From Candidatus Woesearchaeota archaeon (GTDB lineage: Archaea; Nanobdellota; Nanobdellia; Pacearchaeales; GW2011-AR1), in contig CAYIGH010000003.1 in assembly GCA_964362915.1 (NCBI GenBank), positions 1,756-65,755 of the forward strand: a stretch of DNA of 64,000 nucleotides, read 5' to 3'. Position numbers and translations under genes: made by a program. Positions 28,888 to 56,922 of the stretch are shown here, piece by piece. The stretch's first letter is position 1; each line of letters begins with the position of its first letter. The notes under the pieces are model-generated. The model worked only from the letters and a program-made list of their open reading frames with translations, had not been told where the DNA came from and did no database searches.

Positions 28888-31335
28888 ATGAAAGAGGCCA
28901 AGTTTATGAAAATTGCTTTTTTATCAATAATCCTTCTATTTCTAATAACGAATTTTGTCACTGCTGCAATAGAGCCCCGTAATATAGACCAATATTGGCA
29001 GAGAGGTGACGCAAATGATGATGGAAAGCTTGACTTAAGCGATGCTGTCTATGGGCTTAAATATTTATTTTCAGGAGGCGGTCCTATCAGATGCCTGGAA
29101 TTAGGCGACTTAGACAATGATGGAAAAATAGCTCTTAATGATCCTATCTATCTTCTAAATCATTTATTCCAAGGAGGACATCCTCCAGCAACTCCGGAAA
29201 ATATTGAGGAGCAAGATGGAAATGATAGACCATTAGAAATTGGTTTCCTCTATTTTGATTATGCTCAAGAAATTCCAGAAATTGAACTGGAAATTCCAAT
29301 AACTCTATCATTAGCGAGCGAGCAAGGAATAATGAAATATTGCAAAATATCTGCATATCTTGACGCTGACAAAAATAATCCTAAAATAGAAATTCTAGAA
29401 GTTGGCCACCCGGATTTTATTGGAAATCTGCCTAATCCATTAGAATTTATTGTTGGAGACGAAATAGGCGAAAATAGTATGTCGCTTGATAAAACCTATC
29501 TTCTTGAAGCATTGTGTAAAGATGATAAGGGCACTGAAGCAACTACTGCTATAAAAATAAAAACAATTGCCCAAAAAAAACCCCGTGATTGTACCATTGG
29601 AGATATATGTTGCTCAAAAACTGATGGCGCTAAAATTTGCATTTATGGAGATGGTCCACATTCAGAAAAAGCATGCAATGACATTCCCTCTATTGATCCT
29701 AATGATGATTTTCTTCAAGGACAATGGAATGAAGAAGAAACCCCAGAAACCTGTAATATACAAGAAAATCTCCTAGCAAATAACAAAGAAAAAAATCAAA
29801 TTGAATTATTAGGGTCGCCTCCGGATATTCCTGGAAATAATCCTCCAATATCAACCTTAACAGCATGTTGCGAAGTGACTTGCTCTAATGGAGAAAAAAC
29901 CTGCGCACAAACTGTAGAAGACTCCTGCGATAGTTTAATTGAAAACTGGATACCCTATGGATATGCATCTCCTTCAGACTTATGTGATAAAAAATTTCCA
30001 GGCACTTCAGCAACATTAGTAGAATATCGCCCAAGTAAAACCTGCGATACAACACTGGCAATTCCTAAATGCGACTCAAAAAATGGATGTGAAGTAGAAT
30101 CAATAAAAATTCTTAGAAGATTAGATCAATGGGGAGAAATTCCAAGAAGTTTTAGAATGCCTAGGCCTTACATGACAGAAGTTGAAATAATAAATAAAAA
30201 TAAAGAAATCAAAGATGCTGCTGAAGAAATAGGAATATCTGGAACAGCAATGCAAATACCTAAAGCACTTGATGCTAATCATAATCATAATCAACTTCTA
30301 GGATTTGGCGAAGGATGGGTAAAAGGCACGGACGTTAAATTTGAGAAAATAACTAAAAATAGACAACAAAGAATAAATATTCAATTCCTCGGAGATTATA
30401 AGATGGAATATTCATTTGTAGTAAAAGGAGAGTTAAAAGCGACTAGTGACCCAAAAGAATGTGAAAAATATCAATTCACAAAAATCACTGCAAAACGGAT
30501 AGAAAATGGAGTAGGAAAAGAATTTTCTAAATATATTGGAGTAACAGAAAATAAAGATCAACAAGGAAACATAATTAGTACGGAGTTCTTGCTTCCTATA
30601 AATCAGTATCTGTTTTCCTCAGAGGAGCTAAAAAAAGAAAAAAGTCTGCACGAAATGGAAGGAAAACTGCCAAATACAAAAACCCTTCTTGACAAAACTA
30701 CACATATTCCTATAAATGCTTTAAATTCTATACAAGAATCACGTAATGAATTTAAAAATCTTGCTTTATGCTCATATGACTCAGATTCATATTGCGCTGA
30801 TGATTATAGAGAAGAAAGATCGTCAAAATTAGGCGATATAAGAAAAGACCTAGATGCTTTAATCAGTTGGCCAATAATAATGGAAGGATATTTTGAAACG
30901 TCCCCTGTAGTAATCAGAAATCCTATGATAATATGGCACGATAGTCCGGGCTTAATTAATAATCTCAAATATTTTGCGCTTCTGCCTTCACGAACCCGTT
31001 CATATCCTCTACTTCGAGAAACACTTAATTTCCATGAGGAATATCAAGCGTCTTTTATTATGATTATTGAAGATGAAAAACCGCGCCCGTATTCTGAAAA
31101 TGTCAATGGGCAACTACAAACACAATCTGCTCTCCACAGATGGTTATGTGAATTAGAAGATATACATATAAAATCAACAGGGGGCTCTCCAAAAAGATAT
31201 GAGTTAATAGATGAACCAACATGCAAATGCTACCCTCAAAGAAAAAAATCTCCTCAAGATAACTGGGAAAGAATTAAAGGCAAAGAAGGTGATCCCATAA
31301 ATTCAGAAACAGGTTTTATTGAAAAAATCTGCTGA
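28888..31335 (+). CDS. large secreted Cys-rich protein with N-terminal dockerin-like repeat pair (family member P1)
   Basis: Signal peptide. GDANDDGKLDLSDAVYGLKYLF followed by GDLDNDGKIALNDPIYLLNHLF (EF-hand-like dockerin repeats). Cys-rich modules (ACCEVTCSNGEKTCAQTV). Conserved C-terminal module RWLCELEDIHIKS...CKCYPQRKKS. Confidence 0.7.
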   Translation: MKEAKFMKIAFLSIILLFLITNFVTAAIEPRNIDQYWQRGDANDDGKLDLSDAVYGLKYLFSGGGPIRCLELGDLDNDGKIALNDPIYLLNHLFQGGHPPATPENIEEQDGNDRPLEIGFLYFDYAQEIPEIELEIPITLSLASEQGIMKYCKISAYLDADKNNPKIEILEVGHPDFIGNLPNPLEFIVGDEIGENSMSLDKTYLLEALCKDDKGTEATTAIKIKTIAQKKPRDCTIGDICCSKTDGAKICIYGDGPHSEKACNDIPSIDPNDDFLQGQWNEEETPETCNIQENLLANNKEKNQIELLGSPPDIPGNNPPISTLTACCEVTCSNGEKTCAQTVEDSCDSLIENWIPYGYASPSDLCDKKFPGTSATLVEYRPSKTCDTTLAIPKCDSKNGCEVESIKILRRLDQWGEIPRSFRMPRPYMTEVEIINKNKEIKDAAEEIGISGTAMQIPKALDANHNHNQLLGFGEGWVKGTDVKFEKITKNRQQRINIQFLGDYKMEYSFVVKGELKATSDPKECEKYQFTKITAKRIENGVGKEFSKYIGVTENKDQQGNIISTEFLLPINQYLFSSEELKKEKSLHEMEGKLPNTKTLLDKTTHIPINALNSIQESRNEFKNLALCSYDSDSYCADDYREERSSKLGDIRKDLDALISWPIIMEGYFETSPVVIRNPMIIWHDSPGLINNLKYFALLPSRTRSYPLLRETLNFHEEYQASFIMIIEDEKPRPYSENVNGQLQTQSALHRWLCELEDIHIKSTGGSPKRYELIDEPTCKCYPQRKKSPQDNWERIKGKEGDPINSETGFIEKIC

Positions 31336-31370
31336 GAAATATTTATAAACTGCATACATTTAGTCAAATT

Positions 31371-31628
31371 ATGAAAACATTAACAAAATGTCTCCTAACA
31401 GAATGCGCATTAACTCTAGTTAGTATAACTGGAAAATTCGCACTGCAGAAAGAATTTGAAACTCCTAAAGAAGTTATCTTGGACAAATATCTCGGAAGCA
31501 CGCCCCTTGGATTATATAGGGAAGAAAATGTTCTAGACCTAAAGAAAATAAGAATTTATGACCCTGAAAAAAAAGAATATATCTATCCTTTCAGAGATTC
31601 TCCTCAAGAACAAAAAAACAACAAATAA
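31371..31628 (+). CDS. hypothetical protein
   Basis: 85 aa. Confidence 0.3.
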   Translation: MKTLTKCLLTECALTLVSITGKFALQKEFETPKEVILDKYLGSTPLGLYREENVLDLKKIRIYDPEKKEYIYPFRDSPQEQKNNK

Positions 31629-31664: not shown

Positions 31665-33218
31665 ATGTTAAATCTGTCTCCTAGAGAATATCAAAAAGCA
31701 ATTTTTGAAACAGCAAAAAACAATAACACGTTAGTCGTGCTCCCCACAGGCCTTGGAAAAACTTTAATATCTCTCCTTTTGGCAGTTGACAGAATACAAA
31801 AATATCCTGCGAAAAAAATTCTCATGCTCGCGCCTACAAGACCTTTAGTAGAACAGCATTTCAATACATTTAAATCCCAGCTCCCGGAATTATATGCTGA
31901 TCTGCAGCTATTTATGGGCTCAATACATCCAAATAAAAGAAAATCAATATTCCAAACAGCAGATATAATCTTCTCAACACCGCAATGCATTGCTAATGAT
32001 CTAAAAAACGACTTATATAATTTAGAAGACGTTTCTCTTTTAATAATGGATGAAGCCCATCGTTGTCTGAAAAACTACGATTATACAGCAGTTGTTAATT
32101 ACTATAAGCAGCAGGCAAAAGCTCAAAGAATCCTGGGCTTAACCGCCTCTCCTGGTTCGGATTCATCAAAAATCAAGGAAATTTGCTCTCATCTCGATAT
32201 AGAAGAAATAGAAGTCCGTACAAGAGATTCAGAAGATGTTAAACCCTATCTAAAAGAAAGAGAATTTCAAAAAGTAGAAGTGCCATTCCCACTAGAATTC
32301 CAAGAAATAAAGGTTCTTCTAAAAAGAATCTATGATGAAAAAGTAGAGCGATTAAAATCAAGAAAACTTCTATTCGGCCCAATAAATAAAATAACTCTCC
32401 TTCAGCTCCAAAATCGTCTTGCAGCCAGAATTCCAATAAGAGACTTTAATGCGATGATAGGGATGTCTTTGACTGCTCAAGCAATAAAAATATCTCATGC
32501 AATGGAGTTGTTAGAAACCCAGACACTTTCAGGCCTAAATGAATATCTTATGAGTTTAATAAAACAAGCACAAGAAAAAAAGAGTCGGGCAGTACAATCT
32601 TTAGTTAAAACTCCTGAATTTAATGCGGTACTGATCTCCCTAAGAAATCTTCAGGCAAAAAAAATAGAGCATCCAAAAATAGAAGAACTTGCAGTACTAG
32701 CAGAAAACCAGTTTAAAGAAAATCAAAATGCTAAAATTATTGTATTTGCACAATTCAGAGAAACAGCCCAAACAATAGTAGATAGATTAAAGCAAATTCC
32801 AGAGATAAAAGCATCTATTTTCATAGGTCAGGCAAAAAAATCAAACTCCAGAGGCACTTCTGGCTTAAATCAAAAAGAACAGAAACAAATAATAGAAAAA
32901 TTCCGTTCGGGAGAAATAAATACCATAGTGGCAACTGCAATAGGAGAAGAAGGACTTGATATTCCGGAAGTTAGCGCAGTAATATTTTATGAGCCAATCC
33001 CTTCAGCAATAAGGAAAATCCAAAGAGCAGGAAGAACCGCCCGCCTCTCTCCAGGAAAATTAATCATCTTGATGACTAAAGACACCCGCGATATAGCATT
33101 CCATTATGCCTCATCAGCAAAAGAAAGAAAAATGTATAAAACTCTGGATGTTGTAAAACAAGAATTGAAAGAAAAGCAAAAAGATAATTCTCCGGCTCTT
33201 TCAGATTTTAAAACTTAA
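31665..33218 (+). CDS. hef: Hef-like DEAH-box helicase (helicase half only)
   Basis: Motifs PREYQKAIF, LPTGLGKT (Walker A), MDEAHR (DEAH), QRAGRTAR (motif VI). No nuclease domain in this ORF. Confidence 0.8.
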   Translation: MLNLSPREYQKAIFETAKNNNTLVVLPTGLGKTLISLLLAVDRIQKYPAKKILMLAPTRPLVEQHFNTFKSQLPELYADLQLFMGSIHPNKRKSIFQTADIIFSTPQCIANDLKNDLYNLEDVSLLIMDEAHRCLKNYDYTAVVNYYKQQAKAQRILGLTASPGSDSSKIKEICSHLDIEEIEVRTRDSEDVKPYLKEREFQKVEVPFPLEFQEIKVLLKRIYDEKVERLKSRKLLFGPINKITLLQLQNRLAARIPIRDFNAMIGMSLTAQAIKISHAMELLETQTLSGLNEYLMSLIKQAQEKKSRAVQSLVKTPEFNAVLISLRNLQAKKIEHPKIEELAVLAENQFKENQNAKIIVFAQFRETAQTIVDRLKQIPEIKASIFIGQAKKSNSRGTSGLNQKEQKQIIEKFRSGEINTIVATAIGEEGLDIPEVSAVIFYEPIPSAIRKIQRAGRTARLSPGKLIILMTKDTRDIAFHYASSAKERKMYKTLDVVKQELKEKQKDNSPALSDFKT

Positions 33219-33447: not shown

Positions 33448-33511
33448 AATGTTCCACAGCCTTTCAACAAAAACCCAAAACATTTATATATACATATACG
33501 TATACATATAT

Positions 33512-33724
33512 ATGTCAAAACTAATTAATATCTCAAATGAAATTTACAAAAAGCTTTCTACTATAAAAGGAAAAGAAAGCTTCTCTATAATAATTGAAAA
33601 TTTGTTGGAAAAAAAAACAAATAAAGATGCCATTTTAGCATGTGCCGGAAAAGGAGGCTTAAACGAAGATGCGTTAAAATCTCTTCGCAAAGACTGGAAA
33701 AAATGGTCAGACAAATATGCTTAG
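33512..33724 (+). CDS. vapB: VapB-like antitoxin
   Basis: Start at MSKLINISNEIYKKLSTIKGKESFSIIIENLL (archaeal VapB-type pattern). Overlaps the downstream PIN gene. Confidence 0.5.
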   Translation: MSKLINISNEIYKKLSTIKGKESFSIIIENLLEKKTNKDAILACAGKGGLNEDALKSLRKDWKKWSDKYA

Positions 33725-34083
33725 ATTCTGATGTTCTCATTGATCTGGTTCTGGGAAAAGAAGAAATAATAAATTTCATACAACAAACAGAAGCAGAATG
33801 GTTTACAACCACTATAAACATTTTCGAAATTTTGTCAGAGAGCAACGAAAAACAAAAAAATATTGAGAATTTAATCATAGGACTCAAAAAAATAGATTGG
33901 GATGAAAAATCAGCATTAAAAGCAGGAGAAATAAGAAAGGCCCTGAAAGAGAAAGGAGATATCATAGAAATAAGAGATATTTTTATAGGAGCGGCATGTA
34001 TTGAAAATAAACTCGAACTTTTAACAAATAATAAAAAACATTTTGAAAGAATGAAACAATTTGGATTAAAATTAATAGAATAA
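33703..34083 (+). CDS. vapC: PIN-domain toxin VapC
   Basis: MVRQICLDSDVLIDL (first acidic residue) and IFIGAACIENKLELLTNNKKHFE. Overlaps vapB by 22 nt. Confidence 0.65.
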   Translation: MVRQICLDSDVLIDLVLGKEEIINFIQQTEAEWFTTTINIFEILSESNEKQKNIENLIIGLKKIDWDEKSALKAGEIRKALKEKGDIIEIRDIFIGAACIENKLELLTNNKKHFERMKQFGLKLIE

Positions 34084-34124: not shown

Positions 34125-34799
34125 ATGGTCTTTCACAACATCTTCTCAAAAAAATCAATTAAAGAAAAAACCTCTCAAATAATTATAATAGACAATAGAG
34201 AGAAAAATTCTCTCGTCATCTCGGAATTAATATCATTAAATGCAAAAATTGAATTAAAGCAATTAGAAGTTGCAGACTATATTATAGGCAATACAGCAAT
34301 CGAAAGAAAAACAATTTCTGATTTAATCTCTTCCATGCTTAATAAAAGACTTTTTCCGCAATTAGAAAACCTAAAACAATATGAAAACTGTCTTTTAATC
34401 ATCGAAAACTATCAAAACCTGGATTTAAAAGAAACAAAACTAAATGAAAATGCAATACGAGGCCTTCTCCTCTCAATCTCCTTAGATTATAAAATTCCAA
34501 TAATATTTACAAAAGACGAAAAAGATACAGCAATGTTTCTTAGCCTTATAGCAAAAAAGAAAAAAACAGAAATCTCGCTAAGAGCAAAACTCAAAATAAA
34601 GGACTCTCAAAGATTGCAATTTATTTTAGAAGGTTTCCCAAACATAGGCCCAAAAACAGCTAAAAAACTGCTAAAAAAATATAAAACAATAAAATCAATT
34701 ATAAATGCGCAGAAAGAAGAAATAAAATTCTTAATAGGAAAAAAAGCAGATAAATTTATAGAATTGATAAATAAAAAATATAAAGAAAAACTACCCTAG
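34125..34799 (+). CDS. xpf: XPF/ERCC4-family nuclease with C-terminal HhH2 (nuclease half of Hef)
   Basis: ERCC4 motif VADYIIGNTAIERKTISDLISS (ERK..D). HhH GFPNIGPKTAKKLLKKY. Confidence 0.8.
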   Translation: MVFHNIFSKKSIKEKTSQIIIIDNREKNSLVISELISLNAKIELKQLEVADYIIGNTAIERKTISDLISSMLNKRLFPQLENLKQYENCLLIIENYQNLDLKETKLNENAIRGLLLSISLDYKIPIIFTKDEKDTAMFLSLIAKKKKTEISLRAKLKIKDSQRLQFILEGFPNIGPKTAKKLLKKYKTIKSIINAQKEEIKFLIGKKADKFIELINKKYKEKLP

Positions 34800-45777: not shown

Positions 45778-46023
45778 ATGGCAGGCACAACAATTACAAT
45801 AAATATCGAAACAGAAGTGCTAAATAAATTAAGAGAATTAGCTCTTGCTAAAAAACAAAAAAAAGGATTTTTGGGAAAAGTGATTAGTGAAGCAACAAAA
45901 GAATATTTAAAAGAAAAAGAGCAGGAAGAAATAGCGAAAAGGCAGCTGGAAAAAATGGAAACTGGATATAAAATGGGTAAAATATTAATAAAACATCGAG
46001 ATGAGCTGTATGACAGAAAATAA
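45778..46023 (+). CDS. putative antitoxin (RHH/VapB-like) paired with PIN toxin
   Basis: 81 aa charged protein. The N-terminal TTITINIETEVLNKLRELA is beta-strand/helix-like. Overlaps the downstream PIN gene by 23 nt. Confidence 0.45.
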   Translation: MAGTTITINIETEVLNKLRELALAKKQKKGFLGKVISEATKEYLKEKEQEEIAKRQLEKMETGYKMGKILIKHRDELYDRK

Positions 46024-46453
46024 AGAAATTGAATTATTAGATAGCAATATTCTTATTTATGCTTACGATTCTAGCGAAAAAGAAAAACATGCCATCTCTA
46101 AAAACTTACTTGCTAATTGTTGGAAAAGAAAAAAAAGTTACGCCCTCTCTGTACAAAATCTTTCTGAATTATTTGTAGTAACAACAAAAAAAATTACTTC
46201 TCCGGTCAAACCAGATGAAATGAAAAAGAACATTCAAGATATTACTTCTTTTTCTAATTTCACTATTTTAACAATAAATAAAAATAATATTTTAAGTGCT
46301 ATAGAAATTTCTTCAGAGCATAACATTTCTTATTGGGATGCGCTTATCGCTTCTGTTATGAAAGAAAACCATGTTTATAGTATTATTACAGAAAATGATA
46401 AAGACTTTAAGAAAATTCCTTGGTTAAAAGTTACTAATCCTTTTATTAAATAA
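46001..46453 (+). CDS. vapC: PIN-domain toxin VapC
   Basis: ELLDSNILIYAYD plus ITENDKDFKKI (conserved acidic residues of the PIN fold). Confidence 0.65.
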   Translation: MSCMTENKEIELLDSNILIYAYDSSEKEKHAISKNLLANCWKRKKSYALSVQNLSELFVVTTKKITSPVKPDEMKKNIQDITSFSNFTILTINKNNILSAIEISSEHNISYWDALIASVMKENHVYSIITENDKDFKKIPWLKVTNPFIK

Positions 46454-46470
46454 AAATTAAATAGCCAATA

Positions 46471-48645
46471 TCAGCAAATTACCTCTATATATCCCTCGCT
46501 ATTTACCCTTCCATTTTGTCCATCTTGAGCATTGCCCTTAACTCGCTCCCATAATTGTTCTATAGATTTTTTTCTCTGTGGATAGCATTTGCATTTAGGC
46601 TCACCAATAAGTTTTACTCTTTCGGGATTTACTATTTCAGAAGGATCACTTTCACCTTGACTCTTAATATGAATTCCCTCCAATTCGCATACCCATCGAT
46701 TTAAAGCCACTTGTAATTGCGGATTTGTCTGGCCAACATCTACTTCAATAACTCTAGAATGAGCATCCTCAACAACAGCAAAAATAGACGCTTTATATTC
46801 ATCTAAACTAGAAGGAGGAATCCCGCTCTGAAACCCTCCTGGAAACCCTCCTACAGGAGGAATTAAAAATGCTTTTAAAGGGATATGCTTCCCGGGATGA
46901 GTAAACCAAACAATCTTCGGACTTCCTATATTCTCCTCTCCTTCTACTAAATATTTCTTAATATCAAAACTCCCTTTGCCCCCAGACATAGGAAGGTTTT
47001 TTTGTTCTTTGCGATTATTCTGGCAAAATTTATCTTTTTCATACCAACATGACACAAAGCCAGAGAGCTGAGGGAATCGCGGATCATTACGAATCTTCTC
47101 CTCAGTATTCTCATCTACCGTTCTCGATCTTGATAAAAGGGAATTATAATCAAGCAGCTCCATCTGGCGAAGACTTTTTTCTTGCTTAACCTCACTTTCC
47201 TTATGCATATAACTATCAAAATTCTCTAAATCAACCATATCTTCATCCGAACTATCCTTTACAAAACCAACATATCTGCTTTCTTTAATATCAATAAGGA
47301 GGGCATCCCCGCCGGCATTTTCTTTTCTAATTTTAGAAGTAGATGTCCTCTTAATAAACTCAAACTCCTTACATTCTTCAGGATTGCTGTTTTTTTCAAG
47401 CTCAGCTACAATAAATGCCCCATAAGTAACAAAATAAGAACCATCGGGTTTAGTCTCCTCTTCTTTAAAGCTAACATCTGTTCCCTTGCTCCATCCCTGG
47501 ACTAATCCAAGGGGCTTATTCATATTATGAAATTTATCTTTTGCAGAAGGTATTGCAAAATTTCCTTTACCAATACTTATTAATCTCTGATTCCGTATAC
47601 TAAGTTGCGCTTCTGTTAAAAAAAGCTCTGGTTTATCAAAACCCTTAGGAATCTTATCATCTTTCCCCCTTAAGATTTTCATAGAGACAACATTACAAGG
47701 GCTTTTCCCTTTGCACATAGGGGGCGTTACAGAATTATCACATACTTCATTTTCTTTCCATTCAATATCTGTAGCTTTATGTCCTACATAATATTTCGCA
47801 CATGTACCATCATACTTGACCAAATCATCACTTTCACATTCGCTTTTGACCGTTTGTGCGCATGTTGTTTCCCCATTAGAGCAGGTTATTGAACAACATG
47901 CACTCGGCACTTGTGATATGCCACTATCTCCATCTCCTGGCGGAAATAAACCTAAAAGATGCATAGAATTCGCAATAGTTACTTTCAAAAAACTTTCAGC
48001 CTTGGTCCCAATTCCATCCTCACACATTGCCTTTAGCAAATAGTCTCTTCCAACCTGTAATCCAAATGATTCATCAATAACAACCCCATAAGGATTAAGA
48101 AGAAATACTTCAGAATTAACGCTTCCAGCTTCACTAAGAATAATCTCTTCTCCTCCATTCAATAAAAAGGCAGAAAGCTTACAATGCTTCATACTTCCTG
48201 CTCTTGCTCCAATAAAAATATTTGCAGGAATCTCCAAACTCATCTCAGGCCGTTCAATATTTTCTCCCTTTTCATTAACATAATCAACATATAAAAATGC
48301 AATCTCTAAAGGATTTTCCGAAATAGGTTTATCTTCCCAAGAATAAAATCCTCTAGGCGCATCACCTCCTCTAAACAAATAATTCAATAAAAAAATAGCA
48401 TCTGTAATATCTAATCTCTTATTATCGTCCAAATCTCCCCTCTCAAGACAACTGATATCTCCCGCCCATTTAAACAAATAATTCAATAAAAAAATAGCAT
48501 CTGTAATGTCTGTTCTTTCATCTCCATTAACATCTCCTCTTCGCCACGCCTCTCTATTAGAACAGGATTCCAGTGCAAAGACAAATATACTAAAATATAT
48601 TATTAAAAAAATAATTGTTAAACTAAACAAAACCCCTTTTTTCAT
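46471..48645 (-). CDS. large secreted Cys-rich dockerin-like protein (P2, paralog of P1)
   Basis: Likely start MKKGVLFSLTIIFLIIYFSIFVFA (48645) rather than the track start at 48723. RGDVNGDERTDITDAIFLLNYLF and GDLDDNKRLDITDAIFLLNYLF. ACCSITCSNGETTCAQTV. C-terminus RWVCELEGIHIKS...CKCYPQRKKS. Confidence 0.65.
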   Translation of the reverse strand: MKKGVLFSLTIIFLIIYFSIFVFALESCSNREAWRRGDVNGDERTDITDAIFLLNYLFKWAGDISCLERGDLDDNKRLDITDAIFLLNYLFRGGDAPRGFYSWEDKPISENPLEIAFLYVDYVNEKGENIERPEMSLEIPANIFIGARAGSMKHCKLSAFLLNGGEEIILSEAGSVNSEVFLLNPYGVVIDESFGLQVGRDYLLKAMCEDGIGTKAESFLKVTIANSMHLLGLFPPGDGDSGISQVPSACCSITCSNGETTCAQTVKSECESDDLVKYDGTCAKYYVGHKATDIEWKENEVCDNSVTPPMCKGKSPCNVVSMKILRGKDDKIPKGFDKPELFLTEAQLSIRNQRLISIGKGNFAIPSAKDKFHNMNKPLGLVQGWSKGTDVSFKEEETKPDGSYFVTYGAFIVAELEKNSNPEECKEFEFIKRTSTSKIRKENAGGDALLIDIKESRYVGFVKDSSDEDMVDLENFDSYMHKESEVKQEKSLRQMELLDYNSLLSRSRTVDENTEEKIRNDPRFPQLSGFVSCWYEKDKFCQNNRKEQKNLPMSGGKGSFDIKKYLVEGEENIGSPKIVWFTHPGKHIPLKAFLIPPVGGFPGGFQSGIPPSSLDEYKASIFAVVEDAHSRVIEVDVGQTNPQLQVALNRWVCELEGIHIKSQGESDPSEIVNPERVKLIGEPKCKCYPQRKKSIEQLWERVKGNAQDGQNGRVNSEGYIEVIC

Positions 48646-48688
48646 GAAAAAACTTCGTTGATAAATTATATAAATCTTTAGAAAAGTG

Positions 48689-48904
48689 CTAAAAGAGTCT
48701 ATATGATCTGCCGTTATTATCAATTATCCTGACCTTTTTGATATCTAGTTTCCTCAAGGGTTCAGGAAAAATATATTTTTCTTCCCTAGAAGAATAATAT
48801 CTCTCAGCAAATTCCAATCCAGCAAATCCTGCCACTCCTAAAGCCGCCAACCCCAACCCTAAAACAATCCAATTCCTAACATATTCTCTCATGAATAAAT
48901 ACAA
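48689..48904 (-). CDS. small single-TM protein, cassette partner A
   Basis: MYLFMREYVRNWIVLGLGLAALGVAGFAG.... The N-terminus and 70 nt of upstream DNA are about 95% identical to 53380..53691. Confidence 0.5.
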   Translation of the reverse strand: MYLFMREYVRNWIVLGLGLAALGVAGFAGLEFAERYYSSREEKYIFPEPLRKLDIKKVRIIDNNGRSYRLF

Positions 48905-48968
48905 AAATCAAGCCATATAAACTTTACTCCAAAATTTTAGAAACATAAAAAGCCTTAAATAAGCCTGG
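48867..48968. promoter_or_regulatory. conserved 5' module (promoter plus first codons) of cassette A
   Basis: About 100 nt, about 95% identical to 53660..53758. On the minus strand it contains TTTATAT about 27 nt upstream of the ATG. Confidence 0.5.
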
Positions 48969-49005
48969 CTTCTAATAATAAATATAAAAATAATAAAAAG
49001 AGAAA

Positions 49006-51585
49006 ATGTCAAAATTAAAAGTAAAACTTCTATTTATAGCAATATCTTTAATCTCTTTCATGCTCCTGTATCAAACACAAATAACTTCTGCGCAGGCAGA
49101 GGAGCAGCAGGAAAGATTTCTCGATATAGACAATGATGGAATTTCTGATTGCATCACTGAAGATGACGAAACGTGCAAAATCTGTTTATATGGAGTATAT
49201 GAGGAAGGAGGATGTGTAGGAAGCAAACGAAAAGACGAAGATAAAAATGGGGATGGAAAAATTGACTACTGTGATAAAAATTATAAAGAAGATAAAACAG
49301 CAGGGCCAGTTTTTATAAGAGGTGATGCAGATGGAAATAAAAACATTGAAATAACAGATGCAATAAAAACTTTAAAATATCTCTTCCAAAACCAAGAAGG
49401 AGAAATTCCACTCTGCCAAGATGCCTCCGATATTAATGATGATGGAAGACTTGATCTATCAGATGCAATTTATACATTAAACTATTTATTCCTGGGAGGC
49501 AAACTCCCTGTAGTATTCCCAAATCGCCATTTTGACTGTAAAAACGATGATGAGTCAGAAAAATGCCCATCTAAAACATTTTCAGAACAATGCAATGACA
49601 ACTTTGAATGTGAGTGGTCTGGAGGCATTTGTGCATACAACGACGGGGGCGCATGTCGTTTAAGATCAGAAGAAGAATGTACAGATGACTGCAAATGGAT
49701 AAATGAAATTTGCATATTTAATGACTACAATAACGAATGCTCTCTTTGGAAAGGTAAAAAAACATGCAACAATGATTTTAAATGTAATTGGATTGAAATA
49801 TACACAGAAACAACTTCAGAAGATCCGTTATGTAACTGCTACTGGTCAGATGGAATAAGCGGAGAAAAAAGAAGATTATTCCAAAAATCTTTTGAGCCAT
49901 CATGTGATATTTATCCAACAACTGCATACGACTCAAATAACGACGGGGATCTAAACGACCCAAACGATGAAAGAATGTTTGATTCATTAACTTGTAAAAA
50001 CTATCCTATGCCGTCCTCCTATATTACACAGGATAATTGCGACTTCCAAAGAAAAGACGAAGATAGAGACGGTCTAAGAAATGAGAATTGTCCTGATTTA
50101 GTTCCGCAACCAATTCTTCTTGCCCCTCCCCTAATAGATATATTTTCTCCGCATCCTCTAGGAATAAAAATAGCAGAAATCTCAAATGAAAGAGATTTCG
50201 CCCCCCCTGTCGGAAGAGGAGGGATCAAAGTATTATTAATAAATGAAGAAAATCAAGAAATAAATATTCTTCAATTTACAGATGGAAGAGGCAATAGGCT
50301 ATTTATACGAGAGCCAAGTCTTGACGAATTAAATCTCAATGGAATAACATCTGCAAGCCTTACAGGCCTTCCTCATGTTTGGGAAGAATTTAATAGGCAA
50401 CATGGAGCTCAATTTCCTCCAGATACAGCCCACAAATTAAAAATAATGCTTAGAGACGCATCAAACCAAGAAGGTATAAGCGCAGAAGAAATCAAACTCA
50501 GATATAAAATTTTCAATCCAGAAAATACTCCTGATTCTCCACAACAAATGATTCCTAGAGATCAAATAGTAGATGGAAGCGGCTCTCCTAATGCAATTCC
50601 TGATGTTGCTCTAACAGAATCGTGTTCATGCGAAGATATTAAAATTTATTATGCTCCTACACAGTGTATTAAAAGAGCAGACCCCGAAGATATAGATTGT
50701 ACAAAATCCCGTCCTCCTTTCTCCATGCCTTCAGAAGGATTTCTTGTTGAAAGCGGATATGACACAGACACGAATAATGAATTTTATTTTTATCTCTTGC
50801 GAGTTAAAGGAGCAATGGAAACACTTGGAAAACGTGATCCCTCTCTCCCATTAGGCCCTCCTCTTTTCTCCAGCTCACAAAACAGACCTGATAAATTAGG
50901 ACAAGTAGCAGGCATTATTCCTATAAAAACAGAACAAATTCCACAAGGTTTTGGCAGTGATATCCGTAATATCCATGGTCTTCCTTACAGCGGATTCCAT
51001 TACCAAGTTGAAGCAAAAACAAAAGGTAATTGCCAAGGATTTGAATCAATCCAAAGTAGTATCCTAGAAGAATCAGAAAGAAATGCGTTAGAAGGATCTT
51101 TAACATGTCTAGATTGGTATTTAAATACAGGGCCTTCCATAGACGTTTCCGATTACCTCCTTAGTTCAAAACTAGAATACTATGGTATGACAGGAGGCAT
51201 ACATGCTGGCTTTATAGCTCCTGCATACGCATGTCCTCTATTTTCTCCTGTTGACGAATATAAACCTTCGTTTGGCCATACATTTAAAGATGGCAAACCT
51301 TTAGAAGTTTATTTCGAAAATCTTGTAAAAGAAAAAACAGCTGATAAAACAGTTTGGCAAAATAGTCTATTAAGACTGCGCAATCAAGACCCTGATAAAA
51401 ATAAAAAAGCAATTTATAGAATAACATCTATTATTGCGGCTCCCTCTGTAAATATTGAAGAAGAAACCACAATAGCAAAATGCGGCTGTGAAACAGAAAT
51501 TATTGTCAATGCAAACGGCGACTATACTCTTATAAAAGGCCCTGAATGTGAAGTCTTTCCAGATACTGTTCCAATAAGAGTATAA
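49006..51585 (+). CDS. large secreted Cys-rich dockerin-like protein (P4)
   Basis: Signal peptide. RGDADGNKNIEITDAIKTLKYLF and SDINDDGRLDLSDAIYTLNYLF. Multiple Cys-rich modules (CNDNFECEWSGGICAY, CTDDCKWINEIC). Confidence 0.65.
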   Translation: MSKLKVKLLFIAISLISFMLLYQTQITSAQAEEQQERFLDIDNDGISDCITEDDETCKICLYGVYEEGGCVGSKRKDEDKNGDGKIDYCDKNYKEDKTAGPVFIRGDADGNKNIEITDAIKTLKYLFQNQEGEIPLCQDASDINDDGRLDLSDAIYTLNYLFLGGKLPVVFPNRHFDCKNDDESEKCPSKTFSEQCNDNFECEWSGGICAYNDGGACRLRSEEECTDDCKWINEICIFNDYNNECSLWKGKKTCNNDFKCNWIEIYTETTSEDPLCNCYWSDGISGEKRRLFQKSFEPSCDIYPTTAYDSNNDGDLNDPNDERMFDSLTCKNYPMPSSYITQDNCDFQRKDEDRDGLRNENCPDLVPQPILLAPPLIDIFSPHPLGIKIAEISNERDFAPPVGRGGIKVLLINEENQEINILQFTDGRGNRLFIREPSLDELNLNGITSASLTGLPHVWEEFNRQHGAQFPPDTAHKLKIMLRDASNQEGISAEEIKLRYKIFNPENTPDSPQQMIPRDQIVDGSGSPNAIPDVALTESCSCEDIKIYYAPTQCIKRADPEDIDCTKSRPPFSMPSEGFLVESGYDTDTNNEFYFYLLRVKGAMETLGKRDPSLPLGPPLFSSSQNRPDKLGQVAGIIPIKTEQIPQGFGSDIRNIHGLPYSGFHYQVEAKTKGNCQGFESIQSSILEESERNALEGSLTCLDWYLNTGPSIDVSDYLLSSKLEYYGMTGGIHAGFIAPAYACPLFSPVDEYKPSFGHTFKDGKPLEVYFENLVKEKTADKTVWQNSLLRLRNQDPDKNKKAIYRITSIIAAPSVNIEEETTIAKCGCETEIIVNANGDYTLIKGPECEVFPDTVPIRV

Positions 51586-51635
51586 ACAGCTATATAAAAA
51601 ATATACCAGTCAAAAAAGGATCTAAAAATAAGCAT

Positions 51636-53342
51636 TTAACTGATAGCCCCGCAATAATGTTTTGTTTCTATTTTATCTTTCCATTGCTGGTTTGTTTGGT
51701 CATATTCTTGTTGAAAACATAAGCATCCTGGCTCTTGCACTAATTGCATCTTTTTTGTATGTGTTGCTTTTTCAGGCTCATTCTTAAAATGAATTGGGCC
51801 AAGTTTGCATACCCATCTATTTAAACCATCACTATCTTCAATTATAGAAACTATTTCTTTTAAATCTTCAGTAATACCTGCTGGAGAAATAGCCCCGGTA
51901 TTTCCTCCATTTATCCTTCCTATCACTTCAGAAATAGTAGTAGGTGTAAATATGACATCAGGAAAGATATATCCCATCCCTAATTCTGTCCCTGGAAAAT
52001 CAAACCATATAATTTTAGGAATTTCTCCAGATATATGCTTTTTGTATTTATAAGTTATCCCATAATCATCATCACATTTAATCTCATCTGTTTTAGCATC
52101 GCAGGTTGTAGGTGAAATGTCAATCTTTTTTTTAATAGTGCCTATAATACGCCTTTCTGTAAGTTTTCTCCTTGCTGCTAGCTCCATAAGACGTTCTTTG
52201 TTTAGTAAGTCATTCGTCTTGTGCATGAAACCTGGGACAATCCAAGATTTTTTCTCAGGAACGCGCCCACCTGGAACATAGGACTCTGGATAGAAAGTAA
52301 CGTCTTCAATTCTAACAGAAGCAAATTGATGCTCAAAGCAGTCTTCAGGATTGCTTCCTTTTTTAAGAAGAGCATAAACATAAAATTCATATCCATAATT
52401 ATAACTAAGCACGCGGCTTTCTCCAACTCGATAAAGCATATATCCTTCTCTATGTCCAAGGCCCTCGCGATTATGGGCTGGAAGATCCGACGTTAATTGG
52501 TTAACAGACGAGAAAGGCATCTCATCAGGAGCACTATCACCTGCTTTAAGAATAGTCATCTTTTTTACTTTACAGCCATACACAACTTCATCAGAATTAT
52601 CTCCATCTGGAATTGAAATTCCGCCCCCTCTGCCAAAATTCTGAGTTTCACTATTTTCCACATTTAAAAAGAAAGTTAATTCGTCTTCATTACCTTTAGT
52701 ATCCTGACAAATAACACTAATCTCATAACGCTCCCCTTCCAAGAAATTAAATTCATCAATAAAAATCTCCATGTCCTGCCTTTTTAGATCATTTCCTTTA
52801 AAATCTTCATCAATGTTTCCTTCCTCATCCAAATGCCAGAGTGTCGTAAAAAATTCTTCTTTCTCTCCTCCAGGAGAGCCTTTGTACGCAACACATTTTT
52901 CAACTTCTTGAAAAAATAAGTCATCGCTTAAGTCTTTTATATGGATACTATCCCTAATTTTAGCATTTAGTTCAATAGTTTCTGAAGGATTCTCTATCTC
53001 TTCTAAGGAAAAAGGAACTCTTACACCAATTTCAATTGGCTTGTCTAAGTTTATTGGGGCAGGGCCCCCCCTAAAAAGCCAAGATAAAAGATAAATGGCA
53101 TCAGTGATATCTATTTTATTGTTGTTATCGCTGTCTGCTCCGGGATAGCATGGCTTTCCTCCGCCAAGAAAGAGAAAGTTGAGAATTTTTATAGGGTCCG
53201 AAATATCAACAATTCCCTCTCCTGTTGCATCACCGGCAAGATAATTACAATCTGGAATATCGTTAGGAACATCAATTTGCGCAGAAACTATATTTAGAAT
53301 AATAAATATGAAATAGCAAAAAATAAAATATTTTTTAAGCAT
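51636..53342 (-). CDS. secreted dockerin-like protein (P3, paralog of P1/P2)
   Basis: Signal peptide. GDATGEGIVDISDPIKILNFLF and SDNNNKIDITDAIYLLSWLF. C-terminus RWVCKLGPIHFKN...CLCFQQ. Confidence 0.65.
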   Translation of the reverse strand: MLKKYFIFCYFIFIILNIVSAQIDVPNDIPDCNYLAGDATGEGIVDISDPIKILNFLFLGGGKPCYPGADSDNNNKIDITDAIYLLSWLFRGGPAPINLDKPIEIGVRVPFSLEEIENPSETIELNAKIRDSIHIKDLSDDLFFQEVEKCVAYKGSPGGEKEEFFTTLWHLDEEGNIDEDFKGNDLKRQDMEIFIDEFNFLEGERYEISVICQDTKGNEDELTFFLNVENSETQNFGRGGGISIPDGDNSDEVVYGCKVKKMTILKAGDSAPDEMPFSSVNQLTSDLPAHNREGLGHREGYMLYRVGESRVLSYNYGYEFYVYALLKKGSNPEDCFEHQFASVRIEDVTFYPESYVPGGRVPEKKSWIVPGFMHKTNDLLNKERLMELAARRKLTERRIIGTIKKKIDISPTTCDAKTDEIKCDDDYGITYKYKKHISGEIPKIIWFDFPGTELGMGYIFPDVIFTPTTISEVIGRINGGNTGAISPAGITEDLKEIVSIIEDSDGLNRWVCKLGPIHFKNEPEKATHTKKMQLVQEPGCLCFQQEYDQTNQQWKDKIETKHYCGAIS

Positions 53343-53379
53343 TTGCTAATGAGAATATATTGCTTAATAAATATATTCT

Positions 53380-53691
53380 TCACCGTTTAATTACAATCCT
53401 GCTATCTTCAAGAGAGGTTATGTGATTTATCTCCATAAATTCCTTTAAACTAGAATAAATTACAGCTCTCTCTTCATCCCTATGATGATAAATCTGCATC
53501 TCGTCAGCTCTGCGATAAAAGGACGACTTCCTCCAAACAGGAGAATAATTCATATCTATAATTATCTTATTTTTTGAAAGATAATGCCTCTCCATCAAAC
53601 CAAAGCCAGTAAATCCTATCATACCAAGAGCGGCTAAACCCAACCCACTTACAATCCAAACCCTAACATATTCTCTCATGAATAAATACAA
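53380..53691 (-). CDS. small single-TM protein, cassette partner B
   Basis: MYLFMREYVRVWIVSGLGLAALGMIGFTG.... Paralog of 48689..48904. Confidence 0.5.
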   Translation of the reverse strand: MYLFMREYVRVWIVSGLGLAALGMIGFTGFGLMERHYLSKNKIIIDMNYSPVWRKSSFYRRADEMQIYHHRDEERAVIYSSLKEFMEINHITSLEDSRIVIKR

Positions 53692-53758
53692 AAATCAAGC
53701 CATATAAACCTTACTCCAAATTTTAAAAACACAAAAAGCCTTAAATAGGCATAAATTC
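53660..53758. promoter_or_regulatory. conserved 5' module of cassette B
   Basis: Matches 48867..48968. Confidence 0.5.
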
Positions 53759-53776
53759 TAAAGCTATCACAAAATC

Positions 53777-54049
53777 ATGGCAAGCTCAAGACAATTAATC
53801 TATCTAGCAACACCAATACTAGCAGGAGCTATTTATAGCTGTAATGCAATAGAATCAAAAAAGGAAGATGGAATAGAAGCAAAAATAAATGGACTTTCAG
53901 TGATAATCTATAAAGGCACAGCTGAAAATCCGCAAATCTATCAAATAAAAAATTCTGACAACCCTGTTATATACGCGAATAAAGAAGATTTCTTCCTTGA
54001 TATAAAATCAAAAAATCCAAGAGCATCTAAAGCCCTAGTTTTTAGATAA
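53777..54049 (+). CDS. small secreted protein
   Basis: 90 aa with an N-terminal signal-like segment. Confidence 0.35.
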   Translation: MASSRQLIYLATPILAGAIYSCNAIESKKEDGIEAKINGLSVIIYKGTAENPQIYQIKNSDNPVIYANKEDFFLDIKSKNPRASKALVFR

Positions 54050-54051
54050 AA

Positions 54052-55233: not shown

Positions 55234-56148
55234 ATGTTCTCAAATAATCGCTATTATCAACACAACATATTTAAAACTATGAAAAGACATAATAAAAAGA
55301 TGGAAAAGACAAATCATAAAATAGTATTTGGAGATAGTGCAAAAGTGTTAAAGACATTCCCAAATAATACTTTTCAATTAATGGTTACTTCTCCACCTTA
55401 TTGGAATGTTAGAGATTACGGACATGAAAAACAAATAGGGCTTAAAGATACATTACAGGAATATCTTGATAGATTAAATAAGGTTTGGAAAGAAGTTGTT
55501 AGAACATTAATGCCAGATGGGAAAATAGCCCTTGACATAGGAAATATTTATTACTCTGAACCAGACGAAAATAGAAGAACAACAGCAAATTTATCTTATC
55601 TTTTATGGAAACAATTAAATGATTTTAAAGAATTAAGATATATGGGAACTATCTATTGGAGAAAAACAACATCAAGAAGCGGAGCGGTTTTATTTGGCAG
55701 TTATCCTTATCCTTCTAACTTTATGATTTCTTCAGCAGTTGAGCCAATTCATGTTTTTAGGAAAGTTGGAAAAAGAGAAGTGCCACAAGATATTAAAGAA
55801 AAATCAAAAATAACTCTAAAAGAATTTAGAGAGTTTAGAGATGCAATATGGGATATTAATGGGGTAAATGATAAACATGTTGCGGCTTATCCAATAGAGT
55901 TGCCGGCAAGATTTATTAAAATGTTTACTTTTGTTGGAGACTTAGTTTTAGACCCTTTTGTTGGAAGTGGCTCAACAACAAAAGCCGCTTTGGATTCGGG
56001 TAGAAATTCTGTTGGTATTGACATCAACCCAGAATTTATAAAGATTATAGAAGAAAAAGTCGGAATGAAGCAGAGTAAATTAGATAAAGAAATAAAATTT
56101 GAAGTTCTGCATTTAGATGAGAAAAACAATAAATTAGTATCTAAATAA
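55234..56148 (+). CDS. DNA methyltransferase, N4-cytosine/N6-adenine (beta-class; motif IV before motif I)
   Basis: Motif IV TSPPYW. Motif I DPFVGSGSTTKAA. Probable real start MEKTNHK at about 55300. Confidence 0.8.
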   Translation: MFSNNRYYQHNIFKTMKRHNKKMEKTNHKIVFGDSAKVLKTFPNNTFQLMVTSPPYWNVRDYGHEKQIGLKDTLQEYLDRLNKVWKEVVRTLMPDGKIALDIGNIYYSEPDENRRTTANLSYLLWKQLNDFKELRYMGTIYWRKTTSRSGAVLFGSYPYPSNFMISSAVEPIHVFRKVGKREVPQDIKEKSKITLKEFREFRDAIWDINGVNDKHVAAYPIELPARFIKMFTFVGDLVLDPFVGSGSTTKAALDSGRNSVGIDINPEFIKIIEEKVGMKQSKLDKEIKFEVLHLDEKNNKLVSK

Positions 56149-56922
56149 ATCACATGGGCGAATTTTAAACTGCAACATATTTCCTGTTTCTCTACCACCA
56201 TCTCCTCCCTTTCTTTGTAGTGTTATCCTACCAATAGATATACTGCCTCTTGGACTTATCTTAACATCGCCTTCACCAAAAATGCTCATGGCTTTATTAA
56301 TATCTGCTAAAACCCATGTTGTTTCGTCTTTCTTTCTATCATATTTTGTTACTAACATCCAATCAGCCGCAAATTGTCCTCTGCCTTTTATTATATCAGT
56401 CAGAACTAATATTTTATTTTTCTTGAAAAAATCTACTATTGCTTTTTTATGCTTATTCTCAAATTCATCCATAAAAAATCTTCTTTTATCTCTTAACTTT
56501 TTATATTTCTCCTTAGTTATTTTTCTTTCTTTAAACAATTGTTTTGGAGAGATTTTACCACAAAAAATCTCTAAAAGTATTATTATATTTTCTGGAATAT
56601 TCCACATTTCAACATAATTCCTTACCCATCTTTTATCTATTTGGTTATAATCTGCGTCATTATTTGCCTTCTTCACAGATAGGTTTTGGATTGAAATAGC
56701 TTCTTTAATAGTAATCGTGACTTTTATTTGCACATCGGTTTTATAACCATGTAAAACAACTGCTTCAACTTTCTCTATTTCGCTCAAATCATAGTCCATA
56801 ATCTTAAGCCACCTTTGAGCTTCTTTGTCTTTTTTCCAATTCTTAAATTTCTTTGTTATGAACTTTTCATTGGCAAACCCGCCTTTGGCTGTTTCAGAGC
56901 CAATCCTTATCAAATCATTCAT
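56134..56922 (-). CDS. putative type II restriction endonuclease (convergent partner of the MTase)
   Basis: 262 aa, overlapping the MTase 3' end by 15 nt. The C-terminal ...KGGDGGRETGNMLQFKI tail is reminiscent of MspI/HinP1I-family C-termini (from memory only). Confidence 0.35.
   Translation of the reverse strand: MNDLIRIGSETAKGGFANEKFITKKFKNWKKDKEAQRWLKIMDYDLSEIEKVEAVVLHGYKTDVQIKVTITIKEAISIQNLSVKKANNDADYNQIDKRWVRNYVEMWNIPENIIILLEIFCGKISPKQLFKERKITKEKYKKLRDKRRFFMDEFENKHKKAIVDFFKKNKILVLTDIIKGRGQFAADWMLVTKYDRKKDETTWVLADINKAMSIFGEGDVKISPRGSISIGRITLQRKGGDGGRETGNMLQFKIRPCDLFRY

Follow-up and report, generated by a model that had tools for sequence, protein, structure and literature searches.

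Otherwise unrelated surface genes at the vpma and vsp loci of Mycoplasma share a conserved 5' untranslated region and N-terminal region, and positions -1 to -72 serve as a recombination site (PMC2268961). The products of these loci are bacterial lipoproteins. A single promoter is moved by inversions that depend on a neighbouring Xer-type recombinase, and the silent copies are promoterless.

Archaeal repressors, such as MDR1, LrpA, Phr and TrmB, typically bind between the TATA box and about position +18. Among archaeal surface proteins, the adhesion pilins PilA1-6 of Haloferax volcanii, a subject of work by Esquivel and colleagues in 2013, reportedly have an identical N-terminal hydrophobic domain. 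Attachment to host cells is the presumed way of life of DPANN archaea. To our knowledge, almost nothing is known of the regulation or variation of their surface proteins, and most lack a genetic system.

The locus considered here lies in a 64-kb stretch of DNA, which was analysed as a whole and is referred to as the window. The DNA is archaeal, with genes for an intein-containing RadA, Hef, a FlaI-like ATPase and aEF-1beta, and its source is Hainich groundwater (0.1 µm-filtered). Two gene pairs in the window, A and B, share a short module at the 5' end of a small gene.

Two cassettes of small membrane proteins and dockerin proteins

Each cassette consists of a small gene and, downstream on the same strand, a dockerin gene, an arrangement that the earlier note had described and that holds in both copies. 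Small gene A (48689..48892, minus strand) encodes 67 aa, with a single membrane helix at the N-terminus (WIVLGLGLAALGVAGFAGL) and only a short tail at the other end. Small gene B (53380..53679, minus strand) encodes 99 aa, with the same N-terminal helix followed, at the C-terminus, by about 55 aa that form a beta-rich domain (motif IY..VIY..EF). The AlphaFold model of small protein B is of low confidence (pLDDT 49.6) and has a helix at residues 3-33, then strands. Their respective neighbours are P1 (46471..48645, minus strand), a secreted protein of 724 aa with a signal peptide, a type I dockerin and a Cys-containing C-terminal domain, and its paralog P3 (51636..53342, minus strand), which has 568 aa, a dockerin and the same C-terminal domain (NRWVC.L..IH.K...EP.C.C).

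Both gene pairs had been described as diverged to about 30% protein identity outside the module. Over the first 42 residues, which include the membrane segment, the small proteins have 67% identity, and the remainder is at background; only their C-terminal parts are strongly diverged. In the dockerin, P1 and P3 have 40% identity, as against 24% across about 300 C-terminal residues. A further dockerin protein, P2 (49006..51585, plus strand, 859 aa), does lie between the cassettes on the opposite strand and shares only the dockerin with P1 and P3; the window, however, contains six dockerin genes rather than the three previously counted. The closest full-length paralog of P1 is Y (28888..31335, plus strand; 33-37% identity). 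It is followed by ORF85 (31371..31628, plus strand), with a TATA box of its own at -29 and a product that weakly matches small protein A at the C-terminus. Y and ORF85 could possibly represent a third cassette (28888..31628, plus strand); no MREYVR gene was found upstream of Y.

P1, P3 and Y carry a type I dockerin, a domain that profiles can recognise by its tandem pair of Ca-binding loop-helix repeats, each about 22 residues long. Their common profile matches the solved type I dockerins 1daq, 2mte, 2y3n and 3ul4 (E 4e-4 to 3e-3, positions 39-94), and the internal duplication of the dockerin is visible in the DNA (repeat family D2). With Pfam Dockerin_1, P1 scores 22.9 bits, which equals the curated cutoff, P2 scores below it, and P3 alone gives nothing. 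The AlphaFold model of P3 is poor (pLDDT 35.5). Beyond the window, searches with P3 returned dockerin-level matches only, and two of the loci found in this way (L014 and L015) had neither small gene nor module. Among the scanned ORFs of the 64-kb window, none matched Pfam cohesin. A cohesin domain has about 150 aa, and the extracellular parts of the small proteins, at about 35-70 aa, are well below this size. The small proteins may be membrane-anchored partners of the surface proteins; the earlier note had suggested chaperones, anchors or immunity partners.

The small-protein family has three representatives among 1.84 billion protein cluster representatives. Searches recovered only the two window proteins (small protein A as a near-identical strain variant) and P0012, to which small protein B is homologous (profile E 2.3e-8). 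Divergently transcribed from small gene B is ORF90 (53777..54049, plus strand), which encodes a small membrane protein and is annotated as a gene in the assemblies. Through its C-terminal domain, it is a paralog of the small proteins, matching P0012 (BLASTP pairwise E 5e-11) and having a short C-terminal motif in common with small protein B (pairwise E 2e-4); its N-terminus is different, and the gene has no core module. Small gene A is called as a 67-aa gene in five assemblies, and an apparent 89-aa variant of it (P0014) is best explained by read-end errors in a contig of 2x coverage.

Two other interpretations of the small proteins were set aside. In a pilin-type (class III) signal peptide, a short, charged N-terminal stretch closes with [KR][GA] immediately ahead of the hydrophobic segment. 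The sequence of the small proteins is MREYVR-[N/V/T]-WIV, without a [KR]G cleavage motif, and the putative pilins beside the prepilin peptidase of the window read KRG, KKG, RRG or RKG. The idea that small gene A is a chimera of a B-type 5' half and an ORF85-type 3' half was rejected because the match to ORF85 is too weak (pairwise E 4e-4); the tail of small protein A aligns to small protein B about as poorly as to ORF85.

The shared module and its promoter

An exact block of 48 nt is common to small genes A and B, from -30 to +18 relative to the ATG, and over a core extending from -33 to +18 the copies are identical at 50 of 51 positions. A 59-nt pattern across the module has exactly two matches in the window, at 48875-48933 and 53662-53720, both on the minus strand, and none was expected in 100 shuffles. 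Together with the alignment, these matches bear out the two cassettes and the shared 5' module that had been proposed. In a global alignment of 46400-49005 against 51590-53776, analysed in 50-nt windows, identity is 92-98% over about 48955-48881, declines to about 66-70% over the membrane-segment codons (48880-48784), and is mostly 35-60% elsewhere. Upstream of the core it is about 90%, measured over -34 to -75, and the similarity reaches about -88. The alignment that the earlier note had called for thus has a sharp peak at the module, and the similarity is neither uniform along the cassette nor a set of chance matches. The modules are direct repeats 4787 nt apart, and their mismatches are mixed (A/G, T/C and one indel).

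The core of module A (48875..48925, minus strand) comprises a BRE-like AAAG, the TATA box TTTATATG at 48914-48921, a 21-nt spacer at 48893-48913, the ATG at 48892 and codons 1-6 (MREYVR). The core of module B (53662..53712, minus strand) has the same layout, with a BRE-like AAGG, the TATA box at 53701-53708, the spacer at 53680-53700, the ATG at 53679 and codons 1-6. In both copies, the TATA box occupies -29 to -22 and directly follows the BRE-like tetranucleotide. The small proteins had been read from a listed TTG (MYLFMREYVR). The true starts are almost certainly the two ATGs (MREYVR) four codons further downstream, since the gene callers of the source assemblies give products of 67 and 99 aa and the TATA box lies at -29 from the ATG.

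In archaea, the start of transcription lies about 23 bp past the TATA box (PMC4247193), and a TATA box at -29 therefore places the predicted start site at the ATG itself. This position is typical of the genome: among window genes with a good match to TTTAWATA, the box begins at -29 in 12 of 29 and at -27 to -30 in 19 of 29, which points to leaderless mRNAs. The module accordingly has the features of an archaeal BRE/TATA promoter of a leaderless mRNA, that is, a TATA box about 23 bp upstream of the start, a BRE before it and a start site, as predicted from this geometry, no more than 8 nt from the start codon. The dockerin genes have TATA boxes of their own. That of P1 is perfect (8/8), lies at -29 (48667-48674) and begins 15 nt past the stop codon of small gene A; that of P3 is weaker (6/8) and also at -29. 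Hence, the small and large genes need not be co-transcribed.

Upstream of the core, the extension of module A (48926..48980, minus strand) covers about -34 to -88, and that of module B (53713..53767, minus strand) takes up nearly all of the divergent intergenic region to ORF90 (ATG 53777). Both contain a plus-strand CTTAAATA box, at -37 to -30 from ORF90 in copy B and at -62 to -55 from the start of P2 in copy A. The box is likely to be the promoter of ORF90. Because its distance from the gene differs between ORF90 and P2, selection on the box in copy A is unlikely; P2 has a TATA-like box in A-specific DNA, at about 48977-48987.

Between the TATA box and the start codon, the spacer (-21 to -1) is identical in A and B at 21 of 21 positions. 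By the same measure, other promoters of the window agree at 7.3 +/- 2.2 of 21 positions, with a maximum of 13 (190 pairs), and the paralogous promoters of P1, P3 and Y at 3-8. The module spacer is unique in the window.

A third copy of the core was found in a distant homolog, L004. This copy is identical to A at 49 of 51 positions, 50 of 51 being its highest figure, and its spacer agrees with that of A or B at 20 of 21. L004 (ERZ27284378) was recovered from another sample and has an upstream flank that cannot be aligned. Its protein, 39% identical to small protein B, is a singleton in the protein collection without a closer relative there. The upstream extension has no counterpart in L004. No start of a dockerin gene was found in the 230 nt downstream on the L004 contig. 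Shared non-coding elements that are 72-82% identical suggest that its organism is a relative of that of the window. L004 is one contig of 631 bp, and the case for selection depends on this single extra homolog.

The search for further copies that the earlier note had proposed yielded the L004 core and no others in any collection searched. Neither the peptide pattern MREYVR[VNT]W nor a promoter pattern of 27 nt matched any of the GTDB species genomes, a 23-nt core pattern matched nothing in metagenome contigs except one contig identical to L005, and the viral collection yielded nothing.

Just past the core, over codons 7-23, only 8-12 of 17 third-codon positions are identical, and half of the codons for the same amino acid in A and B differ. 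Symmetry in the core is limited to a 5-bp dyad (TATTC-N6-GAATA) with the start codon at its centre, which supports an operator only weakly, and no regulator gene was identified near the cassettes.

Selection, gene conversion and alternative explanations

The repeat occurs with the same flanks in nine independent contigs from six assemblies of Hainich H51 groundwater (0.1 µm-filtered; coverage 2-4.7x). Metatranscriptomes exist for the same wells (PMC12960796). Just two sites vary among the contigs, six of copy A and three of copy B: codon 7 of A (AAT to GTT at 48872-48874, in L005) and position -31 of B (G to A at 53710, in L002). The assemblies concerned are ERZ1292623 and ERZ1292627. Both variants adjoin the exact block, and in each case the variant equals the base or bases of the paralog. 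Variants in the state of the paralog at block edges point to short-tract gene conversion, with tracts of at most about 59 nt, though the two contigs concerned have 2-4x coverage and a sister contig of the same depth has obvious read-end errors.

We give about even chances to the explanation that the 51-nt core is a family-specific promoter/operator block under selection, from which gene conversion spreads identity outward between A and B. An ancient duplication in a DPANN-type archaeon would have produced the two cassettes, each with a small single-pass membrane protein and a secreted dockerin protein. The module would be the expression start of the small gene, with its BRE/TATA, 21-nt spacer and first six codons, and transcription would begin at or next to the ATG. 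The nucleotide sequence of the core would be under purifying selection, including that of the spacer, which ordinary promoters in this genome do not conserve. Most likely, the spacer and start region would act as the operator of a dedicated regulator, or as another promoter-proximal DNA signal, that co-regulates MREYVR-type genes; this putative operator function is proposed from sequence conservation. Short-tract conversion between A and B, seeded in the identical core, would carry identity outward and thereby account for the roughly 90% identical extension that L004 lacks. The earlier note had offered selection on a shared promoter or 5' element and gene conversion as alternatives. Both seem to act, given the core kept in L004 and the paralog-state variants at the edges.

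Concerted evolution might also suffice without selection on the core, if an ordinary promoter block were homogenised by repeated short conversions and L004 were either a close relative or had undergone its own conversion. This is a serious alternative, though clearly the less probable one. The variants at both block edges are what it predicts, identity declines stepwise to either side of the core in the manner expected of nested conversion tracts, the extension has no obvious function in copy A, and RadA is encoded in the window. However, conversion does not act between organisms, and L004, from another sample and with 39% protein identity, still keeps the core. Moreover, conservation sets in at the BRE and extends over a spacer that is kept by no other pair of promoters. 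The block could alternatively be a recombination handle, a homologous or site-specific crossover site at which downstream variable cassettes are exchanged, deleted or switched. We regard this as unlikely, even though variable surface genes lie downstream of the block, recombination is visible within it, and the shared 5' block of vpma/vsp surface genes includes a recombination site (PMC2268961). Each copy has a complete promoter, which leaves no silent copy to activate, and a crossover between direct repeats would delete 4.8 kb rather than cause an inversion. No recombinase, integrase or reverse transcriptase was found among the scanned ORFs of at least 90 aa in the window, and none of eight junction-spanning population contigs is an A/B recombinant, although low coverage would miss rare variants.

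Conservation at the nucleotide level that includes non-coding DNA would equally be expected of an RNA element, that is, a structured 5' leader, a small RNA or the target of an antisense RNA. The block also contains a two-codon mini-ORF (ATG GCY TGA) after GGAG/GAGG, in which the single L004 substitution is synonymous, one substitution being without statistical weight. Such an element is nevertheless very improbable: a TATA box at -29 predicts a transcript that takes in just 18 nt of the block, the gene strand folds no better than shuffled sequence (z +0.5 and +0.7), and the first 18 nt or so of the mRNA are unpaired in two of three copies, with no fold common to all three. Rfam 15 gave no match at E <= 1 in 44000-56000 and none at the gathering score across the window. 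A collapsed or chimeric repeat is scarcely credible. Contigs of the source assemblies do often break within the block (L003 and L009) and coverage is only 2-4.7x, but both loci recur with their distinct flanks in six independent assemblies, and the agreement of nine independent contigs argues that the module is not an assembly artefact. A diversity-generating retroelement was likewise rejected. Such elements have a reverse transcriptase close by, a repeat that forms the 3' end of their target and mismatches only at adenines; here, no reverse transcriptase was found among the scanned ORFs, the repeat is at the 5' end, and the mismatches are not confined to adenines.

Significance and comparison with described systems

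The TATA-to-start spacer of the core, invariant amid diverging surroundings, is a clean and synthesisable candidate operator, which could be used to fish for a regulator and to define a small surface-cassette regulon. For an uncultivated archaeon, the locus also illustrates very short gene-conversion tracts at the level of a population. Should the block be only a by-product of conversion, it would represent ordinary concerted evolution. A bolder proposal, which we consider doubtful, is that a dedicated regulator or recombination system recognises the core and thereby coordinates or switches the expression of alternative cassettes of a membrane anchor and a dockerin adhesin. If true, bacterial surface-variation loci would have an equivalent, based on a leaderless promoter, in a DPANN archaeon that is ultra-small and probably attached to a host.

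The resemblance to vpma/vsp, and also to vsa and vlp, lies in clustered genes for surface proteins that share a conserved 5' non-coding block with N-terminal membrane-anchor codons, a diverged remainder and recombination inside the block. In contrast to those loci, the present one is archaeal, has a BRE/TATA for each copy and is arranged as direct repeats, with no recombinase found in 64 kb, and the block belongs to the small companion gene rather than to the large surface protein. A phase-variable locus of the vpma/vsp type was rejected, since both promoters are complete, no recombinase or integrase domain was found among the scanned ORFs of at least 90 aa, and all eight spanning contigs have parental flanks. 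The paralogous small archaeal surface proteins also recall PilA1-6 in their conserved N-terminal membrane segment and divergent C-terminal parts. PilA1-6, however, are type IV pilins with class III signal peptides and are conserved at the protein level, whereas the strongest conservation here is in non-coding DNA.

In its peak of identity between diverged flanks, and in tract-edge variants that have the state of the paralog, the locus resembles interlocus gene conversion. Unlike the outcome of conversion alone, the same 51 nt are kept in a distant homolog from another sample. Archaeal leaderless promoters with start-site operators are similar in having the TATA box about 23 bp upstream of the predicted start and a purine-rich BRE before it. 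Although about 40 bp of conservation past the TATA box is long for one operator and the dyad symmetry is weak, the module is like archaeal start-overlapping operators in that a family-specific sequence is conserved from the TATA box to about +18.

The two cassettes and their genomic setting

Two cassettes lie in the region 46.4-54.1 kb of the window, each pairing a small gene for a membrane protein that begins with MREYVR (small A and small B) with a dockerin-protein gene. In the order of minus-strand transcription, module B (the shared 5' block of small gene B) comes first, followed by small gene B (53380..53679) and the dockerin-protein gene P3 (51636..53342). A further dockerin-protein gene, P2 (49006..51585), is on the opposite strand, and beyond it module A, small gene A (48689..48892) and P1 (46471..48645) again occupy the minus strand.

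The sharply bounded similarity between cassettes that the earlier note had reported, around a conserved 5' module of 100 nt, is borne out by alignment and pattern count, being neither uniform nor confined to chance matches. A global alignment of the cassettes in 50-nt windows gives 92-98% identity over about 48955-48881, about 66-70% in the membrane-segment codons and mostly 35-60% in the rest. A 59-nt pattern spanning the module has two exact matches in the window versus zero expected. The exact block covers 48 nt (-30..+18, counted from the ATG). The core (-33..+18) is identical at 50 of 51 positions, and upstream to about -88 the copies are about 90% similar, with one divergent patch. Small A and small B share 67% identity over their first 42 residues, and P1 and P3 share 40% in the dockerin and 24% over some 300 C-terminal residues. 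Based on this peaked profile, the pattern matches and the protein identities, the shared block is a real, sharply bounded and non-random feature.

Exact-protein look-ups placed both cassettes on contigs of six assemblies from well H51 of the Hainich groundwater observatory (0.1 and 0.2 µm filter fractions; coverage 2-4.7x). The window has 34% G+C and encodes an intein-containing RadA, Hef, a FlaI-type ATPase, a DRG-type GTPase and aEF-1beta. Its source is an archaeon, whose occurrence in the small filter fraction suggests a DPANN-type cell. The RadA gene (603-4598, minus; 1331 aa) has N- and C-terminal splicing motifs and therefore carries one or more inteins. Hef is apparently split: the helicase part (31665..33218) matches positions 15-517 of the 781-position Hef model, and an ERCC4 nuclease gene (34125..34799) is parted from it by a VapB/PIN toxin-antitoxin pair (33449..34083). 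A restriction-modification pair adjoins cassette B, comprising an N4/N6 DNA methyltransferase (55234..56148) and an R.HinP1I-family endonuclease (56134..56922).

P1, P3 and another dockerin protein, Y (28888..31335), belong to one lineage-restricted family, whose members have four parts: a signal peptide, a type I dockerin (profile matches to solved dockerins, E 4e-4), a variable beta-rich middle and a Cys-containing C-terminal domain. Outside the window, relatives were found by the dockerin only. Among full-length paralogs, Y (815 aa) is nearest to P1 (33-37% identity). The small proteins consist of one Gly/Ala-rich membrane helix and a short beta-rich domain, the latter common to ORF90 (53777..54049), a divergent membrane-protein gene beside module B, and to P0012, a homolog on contig L004 (pairwise E 5e-11). 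An 85-aa membrane-protein gene (ORF85), with its own TATA box at -29, lies just downstream of Y rather than before it, and its weak match to the small A C-terminus (LDxKKxRIxD) may reflect a C-terminal motif common to the small proteins. The stretch 28888-31628 may thus represent a third, rearranged cassette. Both ORF90 and ORF85 lack the MREYVR start and the core. A role of the small proteins as anchors or partners of the dockerin proteins is a guess from adjacency alone.

Secreted proteins without relatives are unusually numerous in the window. Further predicted surface proteins (regions 36004-38437, 40433-43321, 54052-55122 and 58396-60672) include two more dockerin proteins, P5 (C-terminal dockerin) and P4 (962 aa), a 758-aa protein with Thr/Pro-rich linkers, and a pair of proteins related via a repeat region, of which the one at 54052..55122 matches Pfam RTX Ca-binding repeats. 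A type IV pilus-like locus (10248-16527 and 21853-24123) encodes a prepilin peptidase (A24) and seven putative pilins, which Pfam does not match and whose class III signals read KRG, KKG or RKG; a FlaI/TadA-type ATPase gene is 5 kb away. A pilin-type signal in the small proteins was rejected, as they lack the KRG/KKG motifs of these putative pilins.

The core as predicted promoter and gene start

A search for TTTAWATA in the 60 nt upstream of 46 long window ORFs gave 29 good matches. The box begins between -27 and -30 relative to the ATG in 19 of these, including 12 at exactly -29, and it usually follows AAGG or AAAG. In archaea the transcription start lies some 23 bp past the TATA box, and mRNAs with a 5' UTR of 8 nt or less are classed as leaderless (PMC4247193). 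Together, these distances imply that the genome would make mostly leaderless mRNAs. In the module, AA(A/G)G-TTTATATG is located at exactly -33..-22 from the ATG of MREYVR, which the gene callers of the source assemblies choose over a TTG four codons upstream, and this ATG is almost certainly the true start as predicted. The position of the box relative to it makes the 51-nt core a predicted promoter and gene start, consisting of BRE, TATA box, 21-nt spacer and codons 1-6. P1 carries a separate, perfect TATA box at -29 (48667-48674), beginning 15 nt past the small gene A stop, and P3 has a weaker one. Co-transcription with the small genes is therefore possible, but not needed.

The BRE and TATA box are explained by an ordinary promoter, and protein constraint with codon bias may account for much of the identity in codons 1-6. 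Neither accounts for the spacer, which is identical between A and B at 21/21 positions. Other window promoters share 7.3 +/- 2.2 of 21 (maximum 13; 190 pairs), and those of the large-gene paralogs P1, P3 and Y share 3-8. The sole internal symmetry of the core, TATTC-N6-GAATA centred on the ATG, is a suggestive but weak sign of a candidate operator. Immediately past the core, over codons 7-23, third positions agree at only 8-12 of 17, and half of the same-amino-acid codons differ between A and B; these differences indicate that the duplication is old.

A third homolog and probable exchange between the copies

The family has three members among 1.84 billion protein cluster representatives searched exhaustively by profile. 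Besides small B and a strain variant of small A, these include P0012 (103 aa, E 2.3e-8; 39% identical to small B). No closer relative of P0012 was found in 5.8 billion clusters. It is encoded on the 631-bp contig L004 from a different sample (ERZ27284378), whose DNA matches the core at 50/51 positions, with a single T->C at -19, is unalignable upstream of about -34 and diverges directly after codon 6. Two short non-coding elements downstream of P0012 recur near 40 kb of the window at 72-82% identity, which suggests that L004 derives from a relative of the window's organism and not from the same population. Since intragenomic conversion does not homogenise across organisms, the core, including the spacer, would most simply be under purifying selection at the nucleotide level.

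The recurring elements, W1 (40146-40094) and W2 (39959-39903), are paralogous and lie with two GC-rich terminator-like hairpins in 690 nt without a gene (39742-40432, minus), downstream of P4. Each has a TATA-like box and, some 12-20 nt on, ATG/TTG-TT[GT]AAAGTRAAAWTT. Their counterparts (L004 398-531; 82% and 72% identity) closely follow the third small-protein gene, in swapped order. W1 and W2 may represent small RNA genes or remnants of gene 5' ends.

Over a 265-nt population alignment (six A contigs, three B contigs), the copies vary at two places only. In the A copy of contig L005, codon 7 reads GTT for AAT; this two-base change to the B state adjoins the 3' end of the exact block. In the B copy of L002, -31 is A for G, the A state, directly 5' of it. 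Neighbouring diagnostic sites are parental, which limits each presumed gene-conversion tract to some 59 nt at most. That mutation would independently recreate the paralog's state is very unlikely, and a de Bruijn path chimera is unlikely because only 9 nt are shared beyond codon 7. These variants are to be read with caution, given the low coverage and the plain read-end errors in L011, another 2x contig. There, several T->A changes near the contig end (468-544, copying window 48620-48690), most likely read-end errors, give rise to P0014, an 89-aa 'variant' of small A, a warning for any variant call in these assemblies. The contigs L003 and L009 start within the exact block, at 26 and 45 nt before the ATG; short-read assemblies are broken up here by the repeat.

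L004 lacks the upstream extension of about 90% similarity. In B, this extension coincides with the likely ORF90 promoter (CTTAAATA at -37..-30). The same box in A is 55-62 nt from P2, whose own TATA-like box is in A-specific DNA. Conversion seeded in the identical core would also explain this extension.

Possible explanations for the conserved block

That the block is conserved as an RNA element is highly improbable. Rfam gave no match, shuffled sequence folds at least as well as the gene strand (z +0.5 and +0.7), and no fold is common to the three mRNA 5' ends. In mycoplasma vpma/vsp loci, recombination takes place at conserved 5' UTRs and N-terminal regions (PMC2268961), and by analogy the modules might form a recombination switch. 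This too is improbable, however, as both copies have promoters and the modules form a direct repeat. A scan of window ORFs of at least 90 aa revealed neither a recombinase nor a reverse transcriptase, and the population contigs showed no A/B recombinant junction. The best explanation, with about an even chance of being right, would be a family-specific promoter/operator block under selection, combined with ongoing short-tract gene conversion between A and B. The module is a fresh instance of a known phenomenon, in a poorly known lineage.
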